Positions 1,507 to 23,967 of a stretch of 24,532 nucleotides of DNA are shown piece by piece. The translations under genes were made by a program, and so were the position numbers. The first letter of the stretch is position 1. Every line of letters starts with the position of its first letter. Location: IMG/VR virus record IMGVR_UViG_3300031519_000209, positions 1 through 24,532 of that record. The stretch is one strand, 5' to 3'. This stretch comes from a virus (taxonomy: Duplodnaviria; Caudoviricetes). The notes beneath the pieces are model-generated. The model did not search any database, had not been told where the DNA came from, and saw only the letters and a program-made list of their open reading frames with translations.

Positions 1507-1899
1507 TTATTTTTTTACTTTTTCTAAGGATCTACCACCAAAGTAAGCACCTATTACAGTAATTAAAACTAATTGTAATAAGTCAACCCATGAAGATTTA
1601 ACCTCAAACTGGATAATTCCAGCATCTATAAATATTAATAAAACCGTAGATACAACTAAAAATATTAAAACTAATGGTCTTATATTTTTAGATAACCATG
1701 AATCAGATTGCATATCCATCTTCCAACGTTCAGTTACTTGTTTTTGCATTTCTGCTTCATACCCCATTACTAGGTCTTTAATTTTTGCTTCAGCTTCCAG
1801 CTTTTCTTCTTTTGATGTATGTAAATTATCTATAACTCCTCCTACACTTTTTACTAGTTTAGCTGCTCCTCCTGATAATAAATTTGTTAATATGCTCAT
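1507..1899 (-). CDS. Holin of the 3TM / gene-transfer-agent holin type
   Basis: 130 aa; TSKEEKL, RWKMDMQSDSWLSKNIRPL, two C-terminal hydrophobic segments and GAYFGGRSLEK ending. Confidence 0.85.
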   Translation of the reverse strand: MSILTNLLSGGAAKLVKSVGGVIDNLHTSKEEKLEAEAKIKDLVMGYEAEMQKQVTERWKMDMQSDSWLSKNIRPLVLIFLVVSTVLLIFIDAGIIQFEVKSSWVDLLQLVLITVIGAYFGGRSLEKVKK

Positions 1900-3369: not shown

Positions 3370-6009
3370 TTAATCTACTTTAGTTACTAAAATTATAACG
3401 TCACCAGCCGAAGGAGCCACGTTAAATGTCACTACAACTCTAGCGGCTGTTGATCTAACCACTTGTGCCATAACCGTTTCATAAGAACTAGCGTCATACA
3501 TTTGAACATTAACATCTCTTGTGTTTAAACCGTGATCTACGTTAATTGATGTAGCACCTCCAATTGCAGCTCTATAACTTCTTGCAGCTAAACCAGCAGC
3601 TGTAACTGCTCTTGTAGTATCAGAACCAGCTAATGCTTCTGCTGTTGTTGCTAATTCTACAACACCTGGATTTGTAGCACTTGCAGTTTCAGCAGTTACT
3701 GTTACAGCGCCAACTCCAGAGTTATTTACATCTATACCGGCACCAGCAACTATTGAGGTTACTTTTGCAGCAGTCTTGCTTGTTCCTATTTCTGTTGCAT
3801 TCCATACACCAGTTCCAATCGTCCCAACCGAAGTTAAAGAAGAAGTTACAACTGTAGATTTAAGAGTGTTACCAGATAATGTTCCAGCAGCAGCAGTTAC
3901 AGTGATTGCCGATGTACCATCGAAACCAACACCGTTAATAGCTCTTTCTGTCGCTAAAGCAGTAGCTGTTGCAGCTAAACCAGTACATGATCCAGAAGAT
4001 CCTGACACTGTTGTTTGATCACCAGTGTTGTTTCCTGATATAGAAGCGTTTGATAAAGCAGCGCTTAATTGAGCAACAGTGAACGAACCTAATACTGTTC
4101 CTCTATTTGTAGATGTTATATGACCTGTTAAATTACCTATGCTTGTTACAGTACCAGCGGAACCAGACGTGTTACCAGTTACATTACCAGCTAAATTACC
4201 AGTAAACCCACCAACAGCTTTTATATTACCAGCTGTTATACCCGCTAAAGCATAACCAGTACCAGAAGTGTTAACCGTTGTACCAGGTTCAGCTTGTAAA
4301 CTATCAAAGAAAGTAAACGGATCACCAGTTGCACTTCCATCTCTAAATACACCAGCATATTTGTGAGTTCCACTAACACCATACTGACCGTAGAAACCAA
4401 AGTCTAAAGCATCAGCTGTATTTGCTTGATCTTTAGCTAGCTTTAACATACTATCAGCTATTGCAACTGTAGTAGAATCAATAGTTGTTGTTGTTCCATC
4501 AATATTTAAGTTACCTGAAACAGATAGGTTACCAGTAACCGTTGTAGCTCCTTCTAACTGAATATCAGTAGCAGCGTCTAAAGTAATTGTAGTAGCTGTA
4601 ACTTCTATGTCATTTAGGGTTGGAGAACCTATCATTGATGTCCCTTCAGGGTTGAATCTAAGCTCCTGGTTACCAAGAATCTGCACGTGTGTATTGAATG
4701 CTTTAGCACCACCAATTGTCTGTGTACCTGTTGTTTGAACGAAACCGCTTAGATTTGTATGACCAGTACCACCGTTACCCACAGCTAAAGTTCCTGTTAC
4801 ACCGGGTGAAACTGCAGCAGTTCCATTAAAGTTAACGGCAGATGTACTAGCAAGATTAGTTTGGATTGCCCTTGTAGTTGCTAACGCCGTAGCTGTTCCT
4901 GCTAGCCCAGATGTATTTTGATTTAAAGTTGGTATTGCTGCCCAAGTTAAACCACCTGTATTACCAGATTGTGCTGTTAAATAATACCCATTAGTTGGAG
5001 TGTTAGACACTTTAAGATTAGCTTCGTCTACAACATTACTAGCTATAGTTAAAGCACCACTTCCCGTTACTTCACCAGAGTGAGTAGCATTCGTACTTTT
5101 TGCAGTGTTCAAGACTACTGCATCGAATATACCAGTAGACATAACACCAGAGACAGATGTTGTTGCTACAGGTATAGTAGCGTTTGTTCCGTCTGAAGAT
5201 GCTATCACTCTAGAAGTAGTACTACTAGCAACAGATAGATTAGTTGCTACGTTTGTAACCTTTGCAGTGTTAGCATCTATCTCAGCTAATAATGTATTGG
5301 CTAATTTTGCTTCAGTAATTTGGTCATCACCTATGTATGCGGTTTTTATTGTTGTTCCTTGCCAGACTCCACTACTAATAGTTCCTACTTCTGTAATATC
5401 TAAAGCATTTATATCGGCTTTAGATTGATCGGAATTTGTAACTTTAGCGGTATTAGCATCTATCTCATCAAATAACGCAGGAGATAAAAGACCTGAAACA
5501 CTTGTTGTTGCTAAAGGTATAACAGCATTGTTACCGTCAGAAGATGTTATTGTCCTAGCAGCAGCAGAACCCGTAATACCTAGATTAGTAGTTACATTAG
5601 TATTCTTAGCAGTATTAGCTGCTATTGCAGAATTAATAGCATTAGCTAATTTGTCTGCTGTTACAGCATCATCTGCTAGTTGAGTTGTATCAACCCCACC
5701 AGCTGTAATTGCTATATCATTAGCGTTAGCAGTTATACCAGTTCCACCAATAACGTTTAGAGTTGCATCTCCACTTGATGCACCACCAGTCATACCAGCA
5801 CCTGCTACTACAGATTCTATATCACCTGCTCCTGTTGCTCCTAATCTAACCCAAGCTCCGTTCCATACGTTTAAATCATCTGTATCTGTATCGTAGTATA
5901 TTTGCCCTAACACCGGGTTGCTAGGTGCAGTACTTAAGTTTTGTATTCTAGCGTTGTTTAAAGCGTTTTTGTTAAGATCTATATCCGCTAAATATTTTAA
6001 TGTTGCCAT
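3370..6009 (-). CDS. Long tail fibre protein
   Basis: 879 aa, Ala/Gly/Thr/Ser-rich; [17 protein letters not shown] knob motif, [18 protein letters not shown] fibre motif, [14 protein letters not shown] motif, internal duplications, C-terminal HGLNTRDV domain. Confidence 0.85.
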
Positions 6010-6034: not shown

Positions 6035-6280
6035 TTAATTAAAGTAAGCCTTACCTGCAAAACCACTTTGAAATGTTAAGGTTATTTGATTTAAACTGTT
6101 ATATGTTATTTGTCCTATAACTACAGTTCCAGCTGTATCCACAACAGCTGCCGAGCAATACTTATTAAGATTATGTGTTACTGTCCATGTAGATGAAGCT
6201 TGACCTTGATCATGTACAAAGTTTGCATCACCTGTGTAGACATTATTTACTGTTTGAGATGGTTTTAAAAATTTAGCCAT
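6035..6280 (-). CDS. Small fibre-associated beta protein (HNL domain)
   Basis: 81 aa; WTVTHNLNKYCSAAVVD...ITLTF...GKAYFN, resembling the C-terminus of the adjacent fibre; start overlaps the endolysin stop (TAATG). Confidence 0.7.
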   Translation of the reverse strand: MAKFLKPSQTVNNVYTGDANFVHDQGQASSTWTVTHNLNKYCSAAVVDTAGTVVIGQITYNSLNQITLTFQSGFAGKAYFN

Positions 6281-6738
6281 TATATTATTTTATACTTTGT
6301 TTTACCATCTTTTTTATATGCTTTTAAGCATCTATTTCTATTTTGTACAGAGTCTACAAAACTTACATGTACCCAATTAGGATTGTTATCATCACCAAAC
6401 TCCCAGATCATTTGATCAAAGTTTAAGTTTTCTTTTATCCACGCGTACATTTCTGCGTTAGTTTTTTTACAATTAGTATCGTCTATATCTATAGCCTGAC
6501 CTTTACAATGTTGAGATGTAGTTGATCCGCCTATTGCTTTATTTAATTCTGGAGATCTAAAAAAACTATTAATTCTAATAGGACCTCCAACCCATTCTCT
6601 TAAAGGTTCAAATATATCTCTTGCAATCTCATGCATAGATTTTCTTTGATCTTCGTTTGGAATGTTATCTATTCCTTTACGAGTAGCTGTGACACTATAT
6701 ACAGCTTCTCTGTTAGATATATGTTCGCTTATTTTCAT
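6280..6738 (-). CDS. Peptidase M15 (zinc D-Ala-D-Ala peptidase fold), putative endolysin
   Basis: 152 aa; SFFRSPELNKAIGG, SQHCKGQAID (SxHxxGxAxD) and WVHVS zinc-ligand motifs. Confidence 0.9.
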   Translation of the reverse strand: MKISEHISNREAVYSVTATRKGIDNIPNEDQRKSMHEIARDIFEPLREWVGGPIRINSFFRSPELNKAIGGSTTSQHCKGQAIDIDDTNCKKTNAEMYAWIKENLNFDQMIWEFGDDNNPNWVHVSFVDSVQNRNRCLKAYKKDGKTKYKII

Positions 6739-7101
6739 TTATCCTTTTTTCCAGTATGCATATTCTACATTACAAGTAGCTGTATCTGCTCTTAACTCTA
6801 ATCCTATTCCAGTGTGTACAGGAATAAAAACAGTTTCTCCTGCAGATAATTTACCCCATACTACACTTGCTGTAGTTTGAAGTATAACAAAGTTAGTCGG
6901 ATCTAAGTTTTTTACATAAACGTAAAAATCTCCAGATAAATCTGAATCTAATACTTCTTGGTTATCAGCAGTTGTAATAGCTACTCTTGTAAGACCTTGA
7001 TGAGGTATAGTAGTTATTAATGTATCTGATACAGATAGATTTAAATTATTGCTTGAAGAATTTGAACTTGTTAATGTTAATTTTTGTATTAATGTTGCCA
7101 T
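6739..7101 (-). CDS. Small beta-sandwich structural protein, paralogue of 7129..7971
   Basis: 120 aa; MATLxxKLTL start, YVYVKN, VFIP, VEY motifs shared with the neighbour. Confidence 0.65.
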   Translation of the reverse strand: MATLIQKLTLTSSNSSSNNLNLSVSDTLITTIPHQGLTRVAITTADNQEVLDSDLSGDFYVYVKNLDPTNFVILQTTASVVWGKLSAGETVFIPVHTGIGLELRADTATCNVEYAYWKKG

Positions 7102-7128
7102 TTTATTTAAGTTTATTTGTTATTATTT

Positions 7129-7971
7129 TTAAGATTCTGTACCTACTACCATAAATTCAACAACTGTACCAGAAGTGCTTGTATATGCTAATAAATTATT
7201 TTGAGGGTTTAAAGGTACATAAGCAAAATGGCTACCTCTTATTTCCATTATTTCTTCTGCTCCGTGATTATCGTAATATGCAAATATTCTATTGTTAGAA
7301 GCATGATAATCAGATGTATTTTTAATATAAACAAAAGCTGGTGATTCATATTCATTTTTATTAACTAAAGTTATATGATCTGAAGTACTGTTTGTAGACG
7401 CATGTAAATGACCGTAAGTAGAGTTAGCATTGTCTATTAAAAATGTAGCAGCTTCTCCTGCAACAGAATTAGTAAGAGTTGTAGATTGAACACCATCAGC
7501 TTCTGCAGCCACAGCTGAGCAAGTTATAGACCCATTATGACCATTAGCATGTGCAATAACAACTCTTAATTGTTCTAAAATATCTCTTTGCTGCTCTCCG
7601 TCTGCAATTTGAACGCATATACCTCCTATCAAATTTGAAGCAGGTGTAGATGTAGAACCAATATCAGTATTTGCAACTATTATAGTTCCGTCTGCTGCTC
7701 CGCTTGCTCCTGCGTCTGTAAATACATATCGTTTTTTTAAACCATGGTTGTCTGTAATATCTATGTATTGACCTTCCATAACTGTAACATCAGGCACATC
7801 TGCATCTCCATCTGTAATAAAAATTTGATTTGCTCTAGAAGTTGATGTTAATGTTTTTCTTTGTAAACCTGTAGTATTTGTAACTGTAGGAGTAGCTTGA
7901 ACTGAAAAACTTAAAGTATCACTAGTTAAAGCTGTGCTACTTAATGTTAATTTTGAAGTTAATGTTGCCAT
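7129..7971 (-). CDS. Structural protein, paralogue of 6739..7101 with a ~150-aa inserted domain
   Basis: 280 aa; N- and C-terminal parts align by eye with the 120-aa protein. Confidence 0.65.
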   Translation of the reverse strand: MATLTSKLTLSSTALTSDTLSFSVQATPTVTNTTGLQRKTLTSTSRANQIFITDGDADVPDVTVMEGQYIDITDNHGLKKRYVFTDAGASGAADGTIIVANTDIGSTSTPASNLIGGICVQIADGEQQRDILEQLRVVIAHANGHNGSITCSAVAAEADGVQSTTLTNSVAGEAATFLIDNANSTYGHLHASTNSTSDHITLVNKNEYESPAFVYIKNTSDYHASNNRIFAYYDNHGAEEIMEIRGSHFAYVPLNPQNNLLAYTSTSGTVVEFMVVGTES

Positions 7972-7977
7972 GTTATT

Positions 7978-10329
7978 TTATTTTTTTATTAATTTTTTTT
8001 CTACACTTCCATTATCGTATATATAAAATAGAAGTTTATTTTTTATTTTTTTTGAAGGTCTTCCTAATAAATCTGTTACATATAGTAATTTCTTTTCAGT
8101 TTTTGTTCTAGACAATAAAGGACCTACCCAGTTATTTGCACAATGATTATAAGTCAATTGACATATATCATCCCACTCGTTGTTACAACAATATTCATCT
8201 ACATCTATTACCCAAGCATAGCAAAGGTCATTCAACCAGTAAGGTGTACCGTCACCAGATATACAATTAGCGCTATATAAACAAGAAGAGCTGTCAGAAC
8301 TATTGACCAATCCTGAATAATTAAAGGCTGACGGATCCATACACCCTTCAACGATAGAAATACACGAACCATTATCAGTATTAGCAAGCGAATCATAGTT
8401 AAGAGCATCCATATCCATGCAACCGTAAATATAAGAAATACAACTAAAATCTTCTGTATTGGCAAAGGAATTATAATTAATAGAATTCGGATTGGTACAG
8501 CCAAAAATATAAGGCAAACAAGTAGTGTTATCAACATTAGCTAAAGAGTTATAATTAAACATTGTACTATCTGTACAGCCGTATAGTATTTCTATACAAC
8601 TACCATCATTAGTATTACAAGTATCACAATAATTAAATTGTGTTGGGTTTATGCATCCATATATAATATCTACACATGAGCCATTATCTACATTTGCGTT
8701 AGGATCCCAGTTAAAAGCTAAAGTATCAATACATCCATAAACTACCCCTATACAACTTCCATTATCTGTATTTGCTAATGAGTCGTAATTAAGTGCTAAT
8801 TGGCTCATACATCCATAGACTATAGCAATACAAGTATCTGGAGTGTTAGCATTAATATTATAGTTAAAAGCTAATGCTTGCATACACCCTTCAACAACAG
8901 CTATACATGAGTTAGGTAATTCTGTATTTGCTGAGTCTACATAGTTAAATGCAGTTGAGTCCATACATCCTATTACTACTAAAGTACTACAAGACCCATC
9001 ATCATAATCATAGTTTGAACTATATTCTAGGTATACTGGATTAGTACACCCCGGTGTATAGTAGCAACTAACATCATCTACGTTAGCTAAACTGTCATAA
9101 TTAATTGCTGTAGGATATGTACATCCAAATATTTTTTCTATACACGAATTACCACAATAAGGTACTGCATTATAACAAAATAAAGGCTGTATAAATGGTG
9201 CCGCTACCTCTATTATAACATCTCCTAATGGATTTGTTAATTTAAAACCACAGTGAGCAGTTGTTAATTGAGCTTGTTGTGTTATAAAAAACTTAAAACT
9301 AACCTGCTCTGGAGCATTTAAGTTTATAGTAAAGTCTTGGCTAAAGCCAGATGTAAGTATAAATATGTTTGTGTCTGCACCTTGTATAACTCTTAAGTAA
9401 GAACCAACCCAACCATCACCCATTAAATCATATAGAGTTAAAGTATAATCACAATTAGGTATAAGATCCATTCTATTAGCTAAATAATCATAATTATACA
9501 TCGTAGAATCAGTACAACCTATAACAACTAAATTTAAACAAGAACCAGTGTCTATATCTGCTATTGGGTTAAATTCAATATATGAAGTATCCATACACCC
9601 ATAAATAGGCGGGCAAGAGTCAGATACAAATGTATGTATTGTATCATTACCAAAGTTAGCTACATCACCAAAAACCACGGTGTCATTGCATTGTATTAAA
9701 TAGTATGATCCATCTTGTCCTCCCCATAAACTACCTGCCAATCCATCCCCATAAGAATCCATCATAGTAAACTCCATTGGACCAACAGGTAAACACATTG
9801 GTACACTGAATGATTGGTAGTTAACCATATAACTATAAGGACCACCTGATTCTATTATTGCTCCTGTTGAGTCTTTTATCTCCCAAGAAGTTTCTAAAGG
9901 AAATTGATCTAAGTTAATATGTAAGAGAGAAGGTATACATAACGGTGGAGGTGGGGGTGGGCAAGGATATATTGTTACAGTAGTATCTCTTTGAAAGAAT
10001 GATCCTATTACAGGACTCCAGTCTATTATATCCCCCTGACAAGTATTACCCATCTTAAAAGAAGCTGGTTGAGATGAAGTCCATCCATCACCATAACTAT
10101 CCCTTAAGCTTATAGTGTAGTTGCCACTGTTAATATCTAAAACAGTATCTAAGTATTCATATTGATTTGTAGGTTGAAAAAATATAGATGTATCACCATA
10201 TCCATCAGACACCATAAAGAAGTTAGACTCTTGTGGTGCGTAGAAATCAAATTGTACTTGAAATCTAACCCATGAGTTTTGAGCTGTTAAAAATACTGGA
10301 AATAATAAAAGTATTAATATATTACGCAC
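7978..10329 (-). CDS. Secreted Cys-repeat surface protein with T9SS-like C-terminal sorting domain
   Basis: Signal peptide MRNILILLLFPVFLTA-Q (likely GTG start at 10329; ORF track starts at 10347); three DxxGDG-containing domains; 13 GC(M/T)D..A.NY...AN.D.GSC repeats; C-terminal TDLLGR...LFYIYDNGSVEKKLIKK. Confidence 0.75.
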   Translation of the reverse strand: MRNILILLLFPVFLTAQNSWVRFQVQFDFYAPQESNFFMVSDGYGDTSIFFQPTNQYEYLDTVLDINSGNYTISLRDSYGDGWTSSQPASFKMGNTCQGDIIDWSPVIGSFFQRDTTVTIYPCPPPPPPLCIPSLLHINLDQFPLETSWEIKDSTGAIIESGGPYSYMVNYQSFSVPMCLPVGPMEFTMMDSYGDGLAGSLWGGQDGSYYLIQCNDTVVFGDVANFGNDTIHTFVSDSCPPIYGCMDTSYIEFNPIADIDTGSCLNLVVIGCTDSTMYNYDYLANRMDLIPNCDYTLTLYDLMGDGWVGSYLRVIQGADTNIFILTSGFSQDFTINLNAPEQVSFKFFITQQAQLTTAHCGFKLTNPLGDVIIEVAAPFIQPLFCYNAVPYCGNSCIEKIFGCTYPTAINYDSLANVDDVSCYYTPGCTNPVYLEYSSNYDYDDGSCSTLVVIGCMDSTAFNYVDSANTELPNSCIAVVEGCMQALAFNYNINANTPDTCIAIVYGCMSQLALNYDSLANTDNGSCIGVVYGCIDTLAFNWDPNANVDNGSCVDIIYGCINPTQFNYCDTCNTNDGSCIEILYGCTDSTMFNYNSLANVDNTTCLPYIFGCTNPNSINYNSFANTEDFSCISYIYGCMDMDALNYDSLANTDNGSCISIVEGCMDPSAFNYSGLVNSSDSSSCLYSANCISGDGTPYWLNDLCYAWVIDVDEYCCNNEWDDICQLTYNHCANNWVGPLLSRTKTEKKLLYVTDLLGRPSKKIKNKLLFYIYDNGSVEKKLIKK

Positions 10330-10414
10330 ATTTACATTTTTTATCATTACATAATCCTAAACATAGTTTACCAAAAGTAAGTTTACATATTAATTTACAT
10401 ATTTTCTTTTTCAT
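10322..10414 (-). CDS. 30-aa cationic six-cysteine peptide MKKKICKLICKLTFGKLCLGLCNDKKCKCA (below the ORF-track cutoff)
   Basis: Hand translation: ATG at 10414 after aaaaaaataat, TAA at 10322-10324; fills the otherwise unexplained gap and overlaps the next gene's GTG. Confidence 0.7.
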   Translation of the reverse strand: MKKKICKLICKLTFGKLCLGLCNDKKCKCA

Positions 10415-10424
10415 ATTATTTTTT

Positions 10425-10784
10425 TTAAAAATCACTCATTATTAATTCATCAATTACTGCTTGCATCTCTTTTCTTGTTGCTTTCATGCTAAACGATATA
10501 TTAGCTTGAAATCTTTTCATTTCTTCTCCATCTTTAAATATAACAACTGTAGGTACAATTATTATATTGTGTTTCTTTTGTATCTTAGGTGCTTTAGCTA
10601 TATCAACATAAACTATATCACAATCAGTTAACTTACCTATATAACTCACTTTGTTTGGATCATTCCAATCAGCATTAAAGTGTGTAACTACTATCTGACC
10701 GTAAGAAGCATTACTAAATAACATTAAAAATATTATTAATAAATACATAGTAAATAACTTCCAAGAGATGTCAGTGTTTTTCAT
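10425..10784 (-). CDS. Exported thioredoxin-fold protein lacking CxxC
   Basis: 119 aa; hydrophobic leader ending ASYG-Q; HFNADWNDPNK in place of DFxAxWCGPCK; cis-Pro loop IVPTVVIFKDGEE retained. Confidence 0.8.
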   Translation of the reverse strand: MKNTDISWKLFTMYLLIIFLMLFSNASYGQIVVTHFNADWNDPNKVSYIGKLTDCDIVYVDIAKAPKIQKKHNIIIVPTVVIFKDGEEMKRFQANISFSMKATRKEMQAVIDELIMSDF

Positions 10785-11059
10785 TATCTCAATTTGTCAA
10801 TTTTGTCTTCTAATCTTATCATTCTATCTTCCATTTTTTCTACCATCTTTTCTGTATTTTCAATAGAGAGTCTTACATTTTGATCTTTCATGTCAAACTC
10901 CATTTTAGATATTTCTGCTTTAGGTAACTCTTTAGCTTCTGCTATATCTGCTTGTAACATAAACCACATACTTACTAATGTAAAAATTAATGCTGCTATA
11001 CCTCCTAGTGTTTTTACACTTAAATTAAAAGTTGTGTCTTCGTTTAACTCTTTTGCCAT
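10784..11059 (-). CDS. Single-pass membrane protein with C-terminal coiled coil
   Basis: 91 aa; hydrophobic LGGIAALIFTLVSMWFML then heptads (IENTEKMVEKMEDRMIRLEDKIDKL); stop overlaps the thioredoxin-fold start. Confidence 0.75.
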   Translation of the reverse strand: MAKELNEDTTFNLSVKTLGGIAALIFTLVSMWFMLQADIAEAKELPKAEISKMEFDMKDQNVRLSIENTEKMVEKMEDRMIRLEDKIDKLR

Positions 11060-11068
11060 TTTCTTGTT

Positions 11069-12100
11069 TTAAAAAATTATATAATTTATGCCTACTTTAA
11101 AGTCGTACCATTCTCTGTTCCAGTACTTATTGTATTTTCCTTCTACAAAGGTCCCTAAATGTTTATTGTACTTGTACCCAAATATTAATCCTCCTGAATA
11201 ATCTAACCATTGTTTACCTTCGTACTTATGATAAGAGTAATCGTTACCATCATCATAATGATAAGGCATTAAGTTGCCCCAAGAGTGTACCCAAAAATCT
11301 TTTTTATAGTGATAGAAGTCAAATCCTAAAACTAAAGAATGTTGAAGAATCATATCTAAATTAGATCTTTCTTTTTCTGTGTATTCTCTTAAAATTGTAG
11401 GAACAACTACTGCTTTCCAAACTTCAGAGTTAGTAGCTACAATATTTCCATTAGGATCACTATATTCATTTGCATATACATCTACATTATATCCTTCCAT
11501 TATAGCTAAATACGTATAGTGTATATCACCGCTAGGTAAAAGCCATTGTTGTAAAGGATCATAACCATAAGGCTCTGATAATCTTTGAGCTAATCCTATA
11601 TTAAAAGAAATCTTTTTATTTATTTTATATCTATATCTTTCTGAAGTTTCAAAAAATCTTATATCTGCAAATCCATCTTCTAAATATTCTCCTTTTATTA
11701 CGTATGAATTATCTACGTATCTTATAAAATGATGTTGATCTAAATACTCTTCTCCTTCCTGTCTAGTATAATCTATTTCAAATAAATACTCTAAACCTTT
11801 TAATTTACCTACAGTAGCAGCATCACTATAATTAGATTCAGTTCCGTCGTAAAATGTTTGAGCTTTATTCTCATATCCAAACCTAGCTATCTTTCTAATA
11901 CCTAAAGCTATATTATAGTCATAAGGAGTTTGTATAGTATTTGTAGTCAATCCATCAGATATAGAATAAACATCTACATCAGAAACAGAAGTACCTCCAT
12001 TAACAGCTCCATAGAATGTAGCAAATTTAAAATACTTTTTTATCTGAGCATCAGCTGCAGTAGAAAAGCAAATTAATATAGTTAGTATTATATATTTCAT
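11069..12100 (-). CDS. Putative outer-membrane beta-barrel protein
   Basis: Likely start MKYIILTILICFSTAADA-Q at 12100; about 12 amphipathic aromatic-rich strands; ends FKVGINYIIF with terminal Phe. Confidence 0.65.
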   Translation of the reverse strand: MKYIILTILICFSTAADAQIKKYFKFATFYGAVNGGTSVSDVDVYSISDGLTTNTIQTPYDYNIALGIRKIARFGYENKAQTFYDGTESNYSDAATVGKLKGLEYLFEIDYTRQEGEEYLDQHHFIRYVDNSYVIKGEYLEDGFADIRFFETSERYRYKINKKISFNIGLAQRLSEPYGYDPLQQWLLPSGDIHYTYLAIMEGYNVDVYANEYSDPNGNIVATNSEVWKAVVVPTILREYTEKERSNLDMILQHSLVLGFDFYHYKKDFWVHSWGNLMPYHYDDGNDYSYHKYEGKQWLDYSGGLIFGYKYNKHLGTFVEGKYNKYWNREWYDFKVGINYIIF

Positions 12101-12101
12101 T

Positions 12102-13109
12102 TTAGTACTCATTATCTATGTTAGTTGATGTTGGTGAGTCAGTAGCTAATGCAATTCCATTACCATTATCTGCAGCATGGTGATTATTCCCACTAGAATC
12201 ACTTGTTCCTAATACTGCTGGTATTGTTACTGATCCTCTACAACAAACACTACTTCCTTCCCCCGCACCTGGCAGCTCTGCACAATTTTCATCGTACTCT
12301 ACAGATGATGAATCTATTATTACAGATTCACATTTACTTGCACTTGACACAATCTGATATACAGTACCTGAAGACGATGCTGTAGTTGTAATCGAGTCTT
12401 CACATTTTAACCAAAGTTTTAAATATGCTGCCCCATCATACACTCCAGAGTCCTCTGTAGGATCTACAGAAAATTCACCATCATTATACATTGCACTTAC
12501 TTCTGCTTGACTTAATTCATAATCTTTCCAAACACAAATATCTTTCATATGTCCATCAAAATCATAGTTAGAATTATCTAATCTATGTCCAATAGCAACT
12601 TTAGAACTAGTATTAGGCATTCCTTGATAAGATCCGCCTTGACCAAAAAGTGTACTAGAAAGTAGCCCATCTTTATATATTTTCATACCATTGTTACTCT
12701 CAGAACCATCATAAGTAGCTACTATGTGATACCATGTTTGATATGGATTATTAATAGTTTCTGCTGCACATGTAGTTCTGTGATAATGACTATCTGAATT
12801 ATCTACTATATCAAACATTAATTGGCCGTAGTGTAAAAATAACTTCCACTCTTTAGTACTAGTTGTAGTACCTTTACCTATTAAAAGACCATTAGCACTA
12901 CTACTTGTTCCACTTACATCTTGTTTTACCCACATTGATAAAGAAAAAGGTTTATCATTGTTAGAGCCATCAGTCATACTAAAATCATTATGATCATCAA
13001 TATTCATACCATCATCAGAACCCTGAAAATCTATTGACTTTCCGTTTGATGCGTAGTACTTCATTTTTCTAGCGCTGTCAGATAATATGTTAGTAGATAC
13101 ACCAATCAT
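12102..13109 (-). CDS. LamG / concanavalin A-like lectin domain protein
   Basis: FSLSMWVK, WYHIVATYDG, MKIYKDG, FDGHMKDICVW...LSQAEVSAMYNDG, DSSGNNHH motifs; true start likely the ATG at 13109 (TAATG coupling) rather than 13178. Confidence 0.85.
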   Translation of the reverse strand: MIGVSTNILSDSARKMKYYASNGKSIDFQGSDDGMNIDDHNDFSMTDGSNNDKPFSLSMWVKQDVSGTSSSANGLLIGKGTTTSTKEWKLFLHYGQLMFDIVDNSDSHYHRTTCAAETINNPYQTWYHIVATYDGSESNNGMKIYKDGLLSSTLFGQGGSYQGMPNTSSKVAIGHRLDNSNYDFDGHMKDICVWKDYELSQAEVSAMYNDGEFSVDPTEDSGVYDGAAYLKLWLKCEDSITTTASSSGTVYQIVSSASKCESVIIDSSSVEYDENCAELPGAGEGSSVCCRGSVTIPAVLGTSDSSGNNHHAADNGNGIALATDSPTSTNIDNEY

Positions 13110-13513
13110 TAGTATCCAAAATATGCTATCACTGCGTGTCCTGCTCCTACAGTTGTGTGTACAGTTAAGGAAGTCCATCGTCCATAAATCATTGTTCCAG
13201 AAGCAAATTTATTAGATGTATCCATAACTACACCTCCAGAACCTGAACCTGTTGTAGTAGTTCCAAAACTAGCTCCCCCAGTTGTGTGGTTTGTTGCGTT
13301 CTCCGCTATTAATGCAGCAAGTCTTGTATTACCGTGAAATTGTACAGCTATAATGACCATACCTGCTGGAGGAGTTATAGCTGAAGCATTAGTGTCTGTA
13401 GATGCTGAACCGTATTGTCCTAACTGCTGGTTACGAGTTGATTGTAGTTCACTTGAAATATTATCTATTAACTGATCTTGCTCTGTTCTTATTGTGCCTT
13501 TACCTATTGTCAT
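13109..13513 (-). CDS. Small virion decoration/fibre-like protein
   Basis: 134 aa; ITPPAGMVIIAVQF...GTMIYGRWT...VIAYFG pattern; coupled to neighbours on both sides. Confidence 0.55.
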   Translation of the reverse strand: MTIGKGTIRTEQDQLIDNISSELQSTRNQQLGQYGSASTDTNASAITPPAGMVIIAVQFHGNTRLAALIAENATNHTTGGASFGTTTTGSGSGGVVMDTSNKFASGTMIYGRWTSLTVHTTVGAGHAVIAYFGY

Positions 13514-20387: not shown

Positions 20388-20404
20388 AATATTTTTTTTG
20401 GTTT

Positions 20405-20447
20405 AAAAAAAAAGACCGATAGGGGGACAATGCCCCCTATAAGTCTT
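20405..20447 (-). terminator. Rho-independent terminator ending the capsid-gene transcript
   Basis: Inverted repeat ataggggg (20419-20426) / ccccctat (20433-20440), extended by aagac/gtctt, followed on the minus strand by a T run. Confidence 0.9.
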
Positions 20448-20462
20448 ATGTTAAAGTGAATA

Positions 20463-23824: not shown

Positions 23825-23894
23825 AATATAGTTCTTTTAAAGTTTAAATTAGGTGGGTGTAAAGAATAACTCCCCGGGTATTCTATTAATTAAT

Positions 23895-23923
23895 TAAAGA
23901 AGTAGGGAGATTTCTCTCCCCAC
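23895..23923 (-). terminator. Intrinsic terminator/attenuator after the major capsid gene
   Basis: Minus strand gtggggaga-GAAA-tctccctac (9-bp stem with one G-U pair, GNRA loop) followed by ttcttt. Confidence 0.75.
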
Positions 23924-23967
23924 AACCTTAATCAAAAACCAATATATAGACGCAAATTAATGCCAAA

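Follow-up and report, generated by a model that had tools for sequence, protein, structure and literature searches.

Does a gap of 95 nucleotides (nt) in an otherwise compact series of phage genes hide a gene of its own, and what might such a gene do? The question is raised by the viral record IMGVR_UViG_3300031519_000209 (Duplodnaviria; Caudoviricetes), whose whole stretch of 24,532 nt was analysed and is called the window here. The gap is occupied by a 30-codon open reading frame (ORF) on the minus strand (10322..10414), which an earlier note had read as a hidden gene for a cationic six-cysteine peptide. Here we report, on the evidence of sequence comparison, that this ORF is a conserved gene under selection and that it belongs to a large family of which the sources searched gave no description. 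The gene is accessory: its distribution is patchy, its neighbours change from phage to phage, and the capsids of its carriers are unrelated. For its function we tentatively propose, at somewhat less than an even chance, a leaderless, non-essential late peptide that binds membranes and assists lysis.

The ORF translates as MKKKICKLICKLTFGKLCLGLCNDKKCKCA followed by a stop, with nine lysines, one aspartate, six cysteines and a net charge of +8, in agreement with the composition given in the earlier note. The start context and gene overlap described there were also found as stated. The ATG (10414) lies 10 nt past the stop of a thioredoxin-fold gene, the A-rich spacer (10415..10424, minus strand) resembles the starts of other genes and lacks a Shine-Dalgarno sequence, and the final 8 nt overlap a cysteine-repeat gene, whose GTG start (10329-10327) overlaps the last cysteine codon. 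This gene begins at the same GTG in the relatives L001-L003, and the window has an additional in-frame ATG at 10347. Within the series of 27 co-oriented genes, only two other gaps exceed 30 nt (75 and 143 nt, at 20388-20462 and 23825-23967); by eye, these contain GC-rich inverted repeats, the first followed by a terminator-like T run. A 57-amino acid (aa) ORF on the plus strand at 10272-10445 was taken as a shadow frame. A local shuffle test counted two six-cysteine ORFs in the window against 0.035 expected, an excess weaker than it appears, as the second (at 3805) is a shadow frame in a fibre-like gene.

To collect relatives, we searched with degenerate DNA patterns in which F14, G15, C18, G20 and C22 were fixed, so that invariance at these positions is partly built in; variants outside the patterns do occur. 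A pattern for residues 11-22 gave 114 matches in viral contigs, 112 of them in peptides of at most 32 aa, and 113 of the 114 show features that the pattern did not request: Cys6, preceded by an ATG at a distance of 4-8 codons, and hydrophobic residues at positions 5, 8 and 9. Two further scans of viral contigs, one over half the collection, enlarged the set, which stood at 107 distinct peptides once three false matches (L141, L271 and L417) had been removed. A strict pattern applied to metagenome contigs (15 of 64 parts) returned 120 matches, all of them family frames, from which about 580 are estimated overall. We removed an unrelated MSVCGGCPIYY family, stop-containing frames matched by a loose pattern, and a single metagenome peptide truncated where its contig stops. 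Together, the viral and metagenome contigs yield 182 distinct complete peptides of 22-66 aa (median 27), and the relatives are 37-83% identical to the window peptide. Conservation in relatives, the check on which the earlier note had made its proposal depend, thus holds for the frame, the start and a 22-residue core across all 182; among the 107 viral members, A stands at position -3 in 84%.

Protein-level searches added little. A profile search found 67 proteins, none informatively named, and phmmer against 1.84 billion representatives found one relative, the method being too insensitive at 30 aa. No meaningful match to the family was found in Pfam, PHROG, NCBIfam or PDB sequences; matches to YccF, DUF2292, lant_leader_L1a (3 of 107 members) and three PHROGs (one member each) were at chance level and were discarded. 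A tblastn search of INPHARED with two family members gave no match, a weak test for such short queries, and Foldseek gave none against BFVD and PDB, a search that is uninformative for a 30-residue model; the best ESM Atlas score, 0.76, was not usable. In cellular genomes, the tight pattern had no match in a collection of 185,579 genomes, and the loose pattern gave no true member among 121 matches (15 of 64 parts). Searches of published text for four core motifs, for crAss-like cysteine-rich small proteins and for phage metallothionein-like peptides gave no description of the family, which may nevertheless be listed unnamed in a catalogue of small phage genes. Longer fused forms (16 proteins) are mostly single sequences that look like read-through or assembly joins. 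One fused form of 168 aa recurs in a 30-member cluster (P0080) with the internal start kept. Many contigs of this cluster have the core reading in frame into a protein of 140 aa that belongs to no known family, possibly a true fusion.

The substitution pattern points to a protein-coding gene. The ratio of nonsynonymous to synonymous variation (pN/pS) is 0.20 in 49 non-overlapping pairs of sequences, or 0.32 when restricted to nine columns left largely free by the patterns; third codon positions are the most variable, and the other five frames are interrupted by stops within the core in 107, 96, 87, 32 and 85 of the 107 members. Among the contigs listed for four marine RNA runs, which come from related strains, none spans the ORF, which is neutral on expression.

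The conserved unit has 22 residues, M-K-K-x-h-C-x-h-h-x-K-h-(T/S)-F-G-K-h-C-h-G-(W/H/Y)-C (h, hydrophobic), with the cysteine spacing C-x11-C-x3-C. In the window peptide it corresponds to residues 1-22, with a predicted helix at 2-12, a T-F-G turn and Cys6, Cys18 and Cys22; Cys10, Cys27 and Cys29 are variable extras that do not belong to the family core. One member terminates at Cys22 itself, and 70 of the 182 finish within three residues of it. Members contain three (83), four (53), five (11), six (19), seven (11), eight (4) or twelve (1) cysteines, an odd number in 105. Cys10 occurs in 21 members and in each of them is accompanied by two or three tail cysteines; the six-cysteine form of the window is therefore a single variant, whose three additional cysteines occur as a set. 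Tails are interchangeable: there may be none, a few lysines, CC/CxC clusters (at least four tail cysteines in 12 of 182) or histone-like Lys/Pro runs. The richest member, on the metagenome contig L600, has 12 cysteines in 44 aa with a metallothionein-like CxC tail. Exceptions within the core are few: Cys18 is replaced in two database members (P0063 and P0067), and a few members alter F14, G15 or G20.

AlphaFold (AF2) modelled a helix at residues 2-12 with no other regular structure and no beta-sheet, at a mean predicted local distance difference test (pLDDT) of 76 and a predicted template modelling score (pTM) of 0.35. The helix that the earlier note had seen in the N-terminal half is supported by this model, and its amphipathic character by the family profile, whose hydrophobic moment, averaged by column, is greatest at 100 degrees (p 0.0016); the window peptide taken singly does not stand out from its shuffles (p 0.11). 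The metagenome pattern favoured hydrophobic codons, so that unbiased support for hydrophobic residues at 5, 8 and 9 comes from the 113 of 114 viral matches. None of the 182 members contains a lipobox ([LVI][ASTVI][GAS]C), and the longest uncharged run is at most eight residues in 139; the peptide is therefore predicted to be neither secreted nor transmembrane, and we rejected readings of it as a lipoprotein or transmembrane peptide. A cysteine-sensing leader peptide was likewise rejected, given that the amino acid pattern is kept whatever gene lies downstream.

To examine the distribution of the gene, we picked 50 carrier records from the family loci, chiefly so as to cover different peptides on long contigs. 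A crAss-type capsid is encoded in 17 of these and a T4-type gp23 capsid in 10, two of which are complete at 317 and 344 kb; in another (G028) a tape-measure gene lies near the peptide gene. The neighbours fall into 23 clusters upstream and 32 downstream, and are co-oriented with the peptide gene in 49 of 49 cases upstream and 49 of 50 downstream, although the procedure for picking ORFs was biased towards its own strand. Within 9 kb of the peptide gene, the 50 carriers encode a barrel-like protein in 26 cases, a transmembrane protein in 25, a member of the thioredoxin cluster in 27, a cysteine-repeat protein in 19 and a holin in 17. Among 38 loci with a thioredoxin-fold gene, five have the peptide directly behind it. 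The earlier note had offered, as one alternative, a metal-binding or regulatory peptide of the module; that the peptide is a dedicated part of the thioredoxin and repeat-protein module is contradicted by its presence in T4-like and tape-measure phages that lack these neighbours. As the gene moves among podo-, myo- and siphovirus-type phages, a single capsid partner is unlikely and a shared host target would be likelier.

The link to lysis was assessed by mapping Peptidase M15, DUF5675, Amidase_2 and the holin phrog_3427 in the 50 carrier records, of which 39 have at least one match; DUF5675 was counted as an endolysin from its position. Holin or endolysin genes are found within 0.5 kb of the peptide gene in 8 of the 39 records, compared with 1.3 under random placement, and within 5 kb in 22, compared with 8.3. 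An M15 endolysin gene is directly downstream in 5 of 53 loci, and in all ten M15-positive records the peptide gene is upstream on the same strand. One small-phage group has the order 69-aa membrane-protein gene, peptide, M15 endolysin, holin. The peptide gene is nearer to the lysis genes than the barrel gene is in 21 of 24 records. In the window, the M15 endolysin (6280..6738, minus strand; PF08291, phrog_894) and the holin (1507..1899, minus strand; phrog_3427) are encoded 3.6 and 8.4 kb downstream of the peptide gene.

Given a leaderless peptide with a charge of +5, a short amphipathic helix, a late operon and enrichment near lysis genes, a membrane-binding lysis helper is the simplest reading. 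Under this proposal, the peptide would be expressed late and would bind the anionic host membrane from the cytoplasm, aiding lysis without being needed for it, with the disruptin gp28 of phiKT (10.1101/515445) as a precedent. Contact may run through Ile5, Leu8, Ile9, Leu12 and Phe14, with the lysines on the head groups. We conjecture that Cys6 and Cys22 could close a hairpin and leave Cys18 for an interchain link or Zn, that the oligomer state might shift when the holin exposes the reducing cytoplasm to the oxidising periplasm, and that extra tail cysteines or lysines might be optional add-ons. A more elaborate version, which we regard as unlikely, would make it a thiol-gated lysis peptide of Bacteroidota phages, with a helix-turn-CxGxC structure that is kept reduced or Zn-bound, is activated by oxidation or metal loss at holin firing and breaches the outer membrane, its gene being portable across crAss-like, T4-like jumbo and siphovirus-type phages.

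Several observations weigh against a role in lysis. About four phage groups account for all eight of the closest cases, which are thus not independent. The enrichment only modestly exceeds that of neighbouring genes of the late region: the peptide gene is the closer to the lysis genes in 7 of 12 records when set against DUF6321, in 15 of 24 against the thioredoxin gene and in 13 of 22 against the transmembrane-protein gene. Four gp23 jumbo records place it 14-171 kb from the Amidase_2 gene, and the 3.6 and 8.4 kb of the window also tell against the link. Of the 38 records that have the thioredoxin module, 29 lack the peptide gene and nine carry it; it is absent from seven of the eight near-complete ones. 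The hydrophobic moment of single peptides exceeds their own shuffles in none of 107 members, the helix of about 11 residues is too short to span a bilayer, and a simple membrane peptide would not need three near-invariant cysteines or the metallothionein-like tails. The lysis-accessory role suggested in the earlier note nevertheless remains plausible from the sequence data, in that the peptide is conserved, cationic, encoded in a late region and enriched near lysis genes, and no lipobox ORF was found in the 24.5-kb window, although the record is a fragment. An essential spanin replacement is doubtful, because the gene is absent from most near-complete module phages and far from the endolysin in jumbo phages. 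For context, one survey reports u-spanins as the kind used by those Bacteroidetes phages in which spanins are found (PMC12596118).

Among the alternatives, a metal- or thiol-binding microprotein is possible, although we hold it to be rather doubtful. In the reducing cytoplasm, the three core cysteines would here coordinate Zn, Cu or an Fe-S centre and buffer or deliver metal, with Cys10, His21, a tail cysteine or a second chain as the fourth ligand and the helix as a docking surface. This accounts better than the membrane model for the odd and variable cysteine counts (3-12 per peptide) and for the CC and CxC tails, which reach their extreme in L600. It is also in keeping with the invariable company of Cys10 and tail cysteines, with a His at position 21 in 19 of the 182, and with the lack of an export signal, as a result of which disulfides are not expected before lysis. 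In L004 (4360-4430) and L029 (4285-4359), moreover, the slot behind the thioredoxin-fold gene holds a different peptide of 22-24 aa with a C-x-C...C-D-G-S-H motif, which we take to resemble a stand-alone CDGSH iron-sulfur motif. Metal binding leaves the hydrophobic face unexplained, however, and neither that face nor a +5 charge is a metallothionein trait; the many members that end at or just after Cys22 offer too little for storage, Cys18 can be replaced, and the neighbour clusters include no constant metalloenzyme.

That the peptide is packed in the capsid with the DNA, as an internal or protamine-like basic protein that is cross-linked by disulfides after release, seems improbable. The late region is dense with small lysine-rich genes, such as DUF6321 and DUF5872, and one subfamily (P0006-P0056) has histone-like Lys/Pro tails. 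In large T4-like or related records (G009, G015, G016, G020, G024, G025, G029, G032 and G035), the motif TATTTAT, a candidate late promoter, lies just upstream of many short genes; in large phages it precedes 8 of 16 peptide genes versus 77 of 466 other ORFs, and it also precedes 14 of 22 genes that share an N-terminal M-K-x-I-x-L-T-E-like motif. We take the latter motif to be a candidate capsid-targeting signal. The family itself has no shared N-terminus of this kind, its gene is carried by three unrelated virion types, a long lysine-rich tail occurs in only 5 of 182 members, and DNA packing does not demand a conserved hydrophobic pattern.

We give equally little credence to an inhibitor or modulator of one conserved protein, either of the host envelope or secretion machinery or a phage Zn endolysin or holin, acting through the hydrophobic face and a free cysteine. 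The tight conservation of the core across unrelated phages would suit a specific surface, the distribution is patchy and mobile, and the peptide gene adjoins M15 in G028 and G036. Against this, no partner is encoded in all carriers, none of the gene types counted within 9 kb exceeding 27 of the 50, the endolysin types vary (M15, DUF5675 and Amidase_2), and no members were found in the cellular genomes searched. Finally, a conserved spacer or translational-coupling ORF without a functional product, which would fit the RNA runs having given contigs only and the last cysteine codon overlapping the next GTG in the window's clade, is scarcely credible in view of the low pN/pS, the third-position excess and the recurrence of the same core in dozens of gene contexts, with every strict-pattern metagenome match a family frame.

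The window encodes a crAss-type tail ring protein (PF25702) and a capsid protein (phrog_11589) in addition to the M15 endolysin and holin. Upstream of the peptide gene, all on the minus strand, lie genes for the thioredoxin-fold protein (10425..10784; 119 aa, hydrophobic N-terminus, no CxxC, PF00085 match below the cut-off at E 1.6e-4), a 91-aa protein with one predicted membrane helix and a coiled-coil-like tail (10784..11059; phrog_1009, unknown function), and a 347-aa protein with a signal-like N-terminus, a terminal Phe and no family match (11069..12112), which by eye may be an outer-membrane barrel. Downstream is the gene for the cysteine-repeat protein of about 780 aa (7978..10329, minus strand), which has a signal-like N-terminus; its relative L461 has a weak match to a type IX secretion system (T9SS) C-terminal domain (PF18962, E 2.6e-4). 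A Bacteroidota host is suggested by the crAss-type gene content, the start context without a Shine-Dalgarno sequence and this weak T9SS match. A scan of positions 7000-13500 for sigma-70 promoters and terminators found nothing exceeding shuffles.

The barrel-like, transmembrane/coiled-coil, CxxC-less thioredoxin and cysteine-repeat genes (10425-12112 and 7978-10329 in the window) form a cassette whose order is shuffled across carriers. Three of the 27 carriers of the thioredoxin cluster have true thioredoxins, and many thioredoxin-fold proteins retain one cysteine in a D/E-C motif. Two adjacent, paralogous-looking genes of the window (6739-7101 and 7129-7971) both start MATL..KLTLTS/SS and have no Pfam match; this cluster occurs in one to three tandem copies in 18 of the 50 carrier records, frequently just before the endolysin gene. 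In a crAss-like group of about 110 kb (G037, G038, G040, G045, G047, G048, G049 and G011), the peptide gene follows an opposite-strand class I ribonucleotide reductase pair and is often ATGA-coupled to a gene for a 41-45-aa basic peptide ending Y-R/K-G-Q-G-R. In a 28-kb viral contig (L052), it is flanked on one side by a 398-aa lipoprotein-like gene, ahead of which comes a receptor-like C-terminus, and on the other by what by eye resembles a transfer-messenger RNA gene. A T4-type holin match was sought for a neighbour in a jumbo phage (L450:7902-8504), and none was found.

Little is known of how Bacteroidota phages get through the outer membrane, and the only disruptin characterised so far is almost without homologues. 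The family described here comprises 182 sequence-defined variants with a minimal member of 22 residues, below the length cut-off of most gene callers, and is common to unrelated aquatic phages. Its members are easy to synthesise, and an existing complementation assay makes the disruptin question directly testable; the natural variants with 3 to 12 cysteines could help to tell membrane activity from metal binding. If the thiol-gated reading were true, no disruptin family before this one would have had such wide homology, and none a redox or metal switch; if the peptide is a metal-binding or host-targeting microprotein instead, it would still represent a function common among phages of oceans and lakes yet lacking annotation.

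Among known systems, metallothioneins are characterised by a high cysteine content in CC/CxC clusters and by few hydrophobic residues. The family resembles these and small Zn-binding microproteins in the CC/CxC tails of a minority of members, the variable and often odd number of cysteines and the lack of an export signal; it differs in its conserved hydrophobic cationic helix, with eight hydrophobic core columns, in having mostly three or four cysteines and in lacking a Pfam match. Features of CS-alpha-beta defensins (PMC7407236) are seen in the window peptide taken by itself: C-x3-C within a helix, C-x-C at the end, and a gamma-core of the form GXC-x4-C. Across the family, six cysteines are found in 19 of 182 members, the gamma-core in 64 and Cys10 together with a tail CxC in 12, and no Pfam match was obtained. 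The ORF is the whole peptide, with no signal peptide or secreted precursor, and the model, which is weak, shows no strand to which a helix could be stapled. The three-disulfide, defensin-like peptide of the earlier note is thus wrong at the family level. The window peptide also has the C6-x3-C10-x7-C18-x3-C22 arrangement of alpha-hairpinins, which are cut from secreted plant precursors (PMC11591084). The C-x3-C-xn-C-x3-C pattern occurs in only 21 of 182 members, and instead of a helix-loop-helix fold a single helix is predicted, the second segment holding Gly and not being modelled as a helix. The lipobox after a hydrophobic signal that marks o-spanins and u-spanins (consensus from PMC6139136) is present in none of the 182.

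Two phage lysis proteins were also compared. Lcc6 of LambdaSo is a 65-aa transmembrane protein strictly required for lysis (10.1101/2024.01.23.576932). Like it, the family peptides may be small accessory phage proteins that help lysis at the membrane; they differ in having no transmembrane stretch and a patchy distribution. The disruptin gp28 of phiKT is a 56-aa, cationic and mostly helical protein with almost no homologues, whose gene lies between those of the endolysin and the holin (10.1101/515445). Cysteine is not mentioned for gp28 in the part of that source consulted, whereas the family has a 22-aa three-cysteine core, spans phage lineages patchily and is often remote from lysis genes. 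A size and charge screen for disruptins (fewer than 80 aa, net charge of at least +4) selects the window peptide and 163 of the 182 members; it is noisy according to its authors, with 528 candidates in 91 genomes (10.1101/515445), which tempers its support for a lysis role. The likeness to gp28 lies in the small size, the cationic character, the predicted amphipathic helix, which in the window peptide covers residues 2-12 only, and the lack of any export signal described in the same source, and in the placement of some family members between a membrane-protein gene and the endolysin gene, with the holin gene next.

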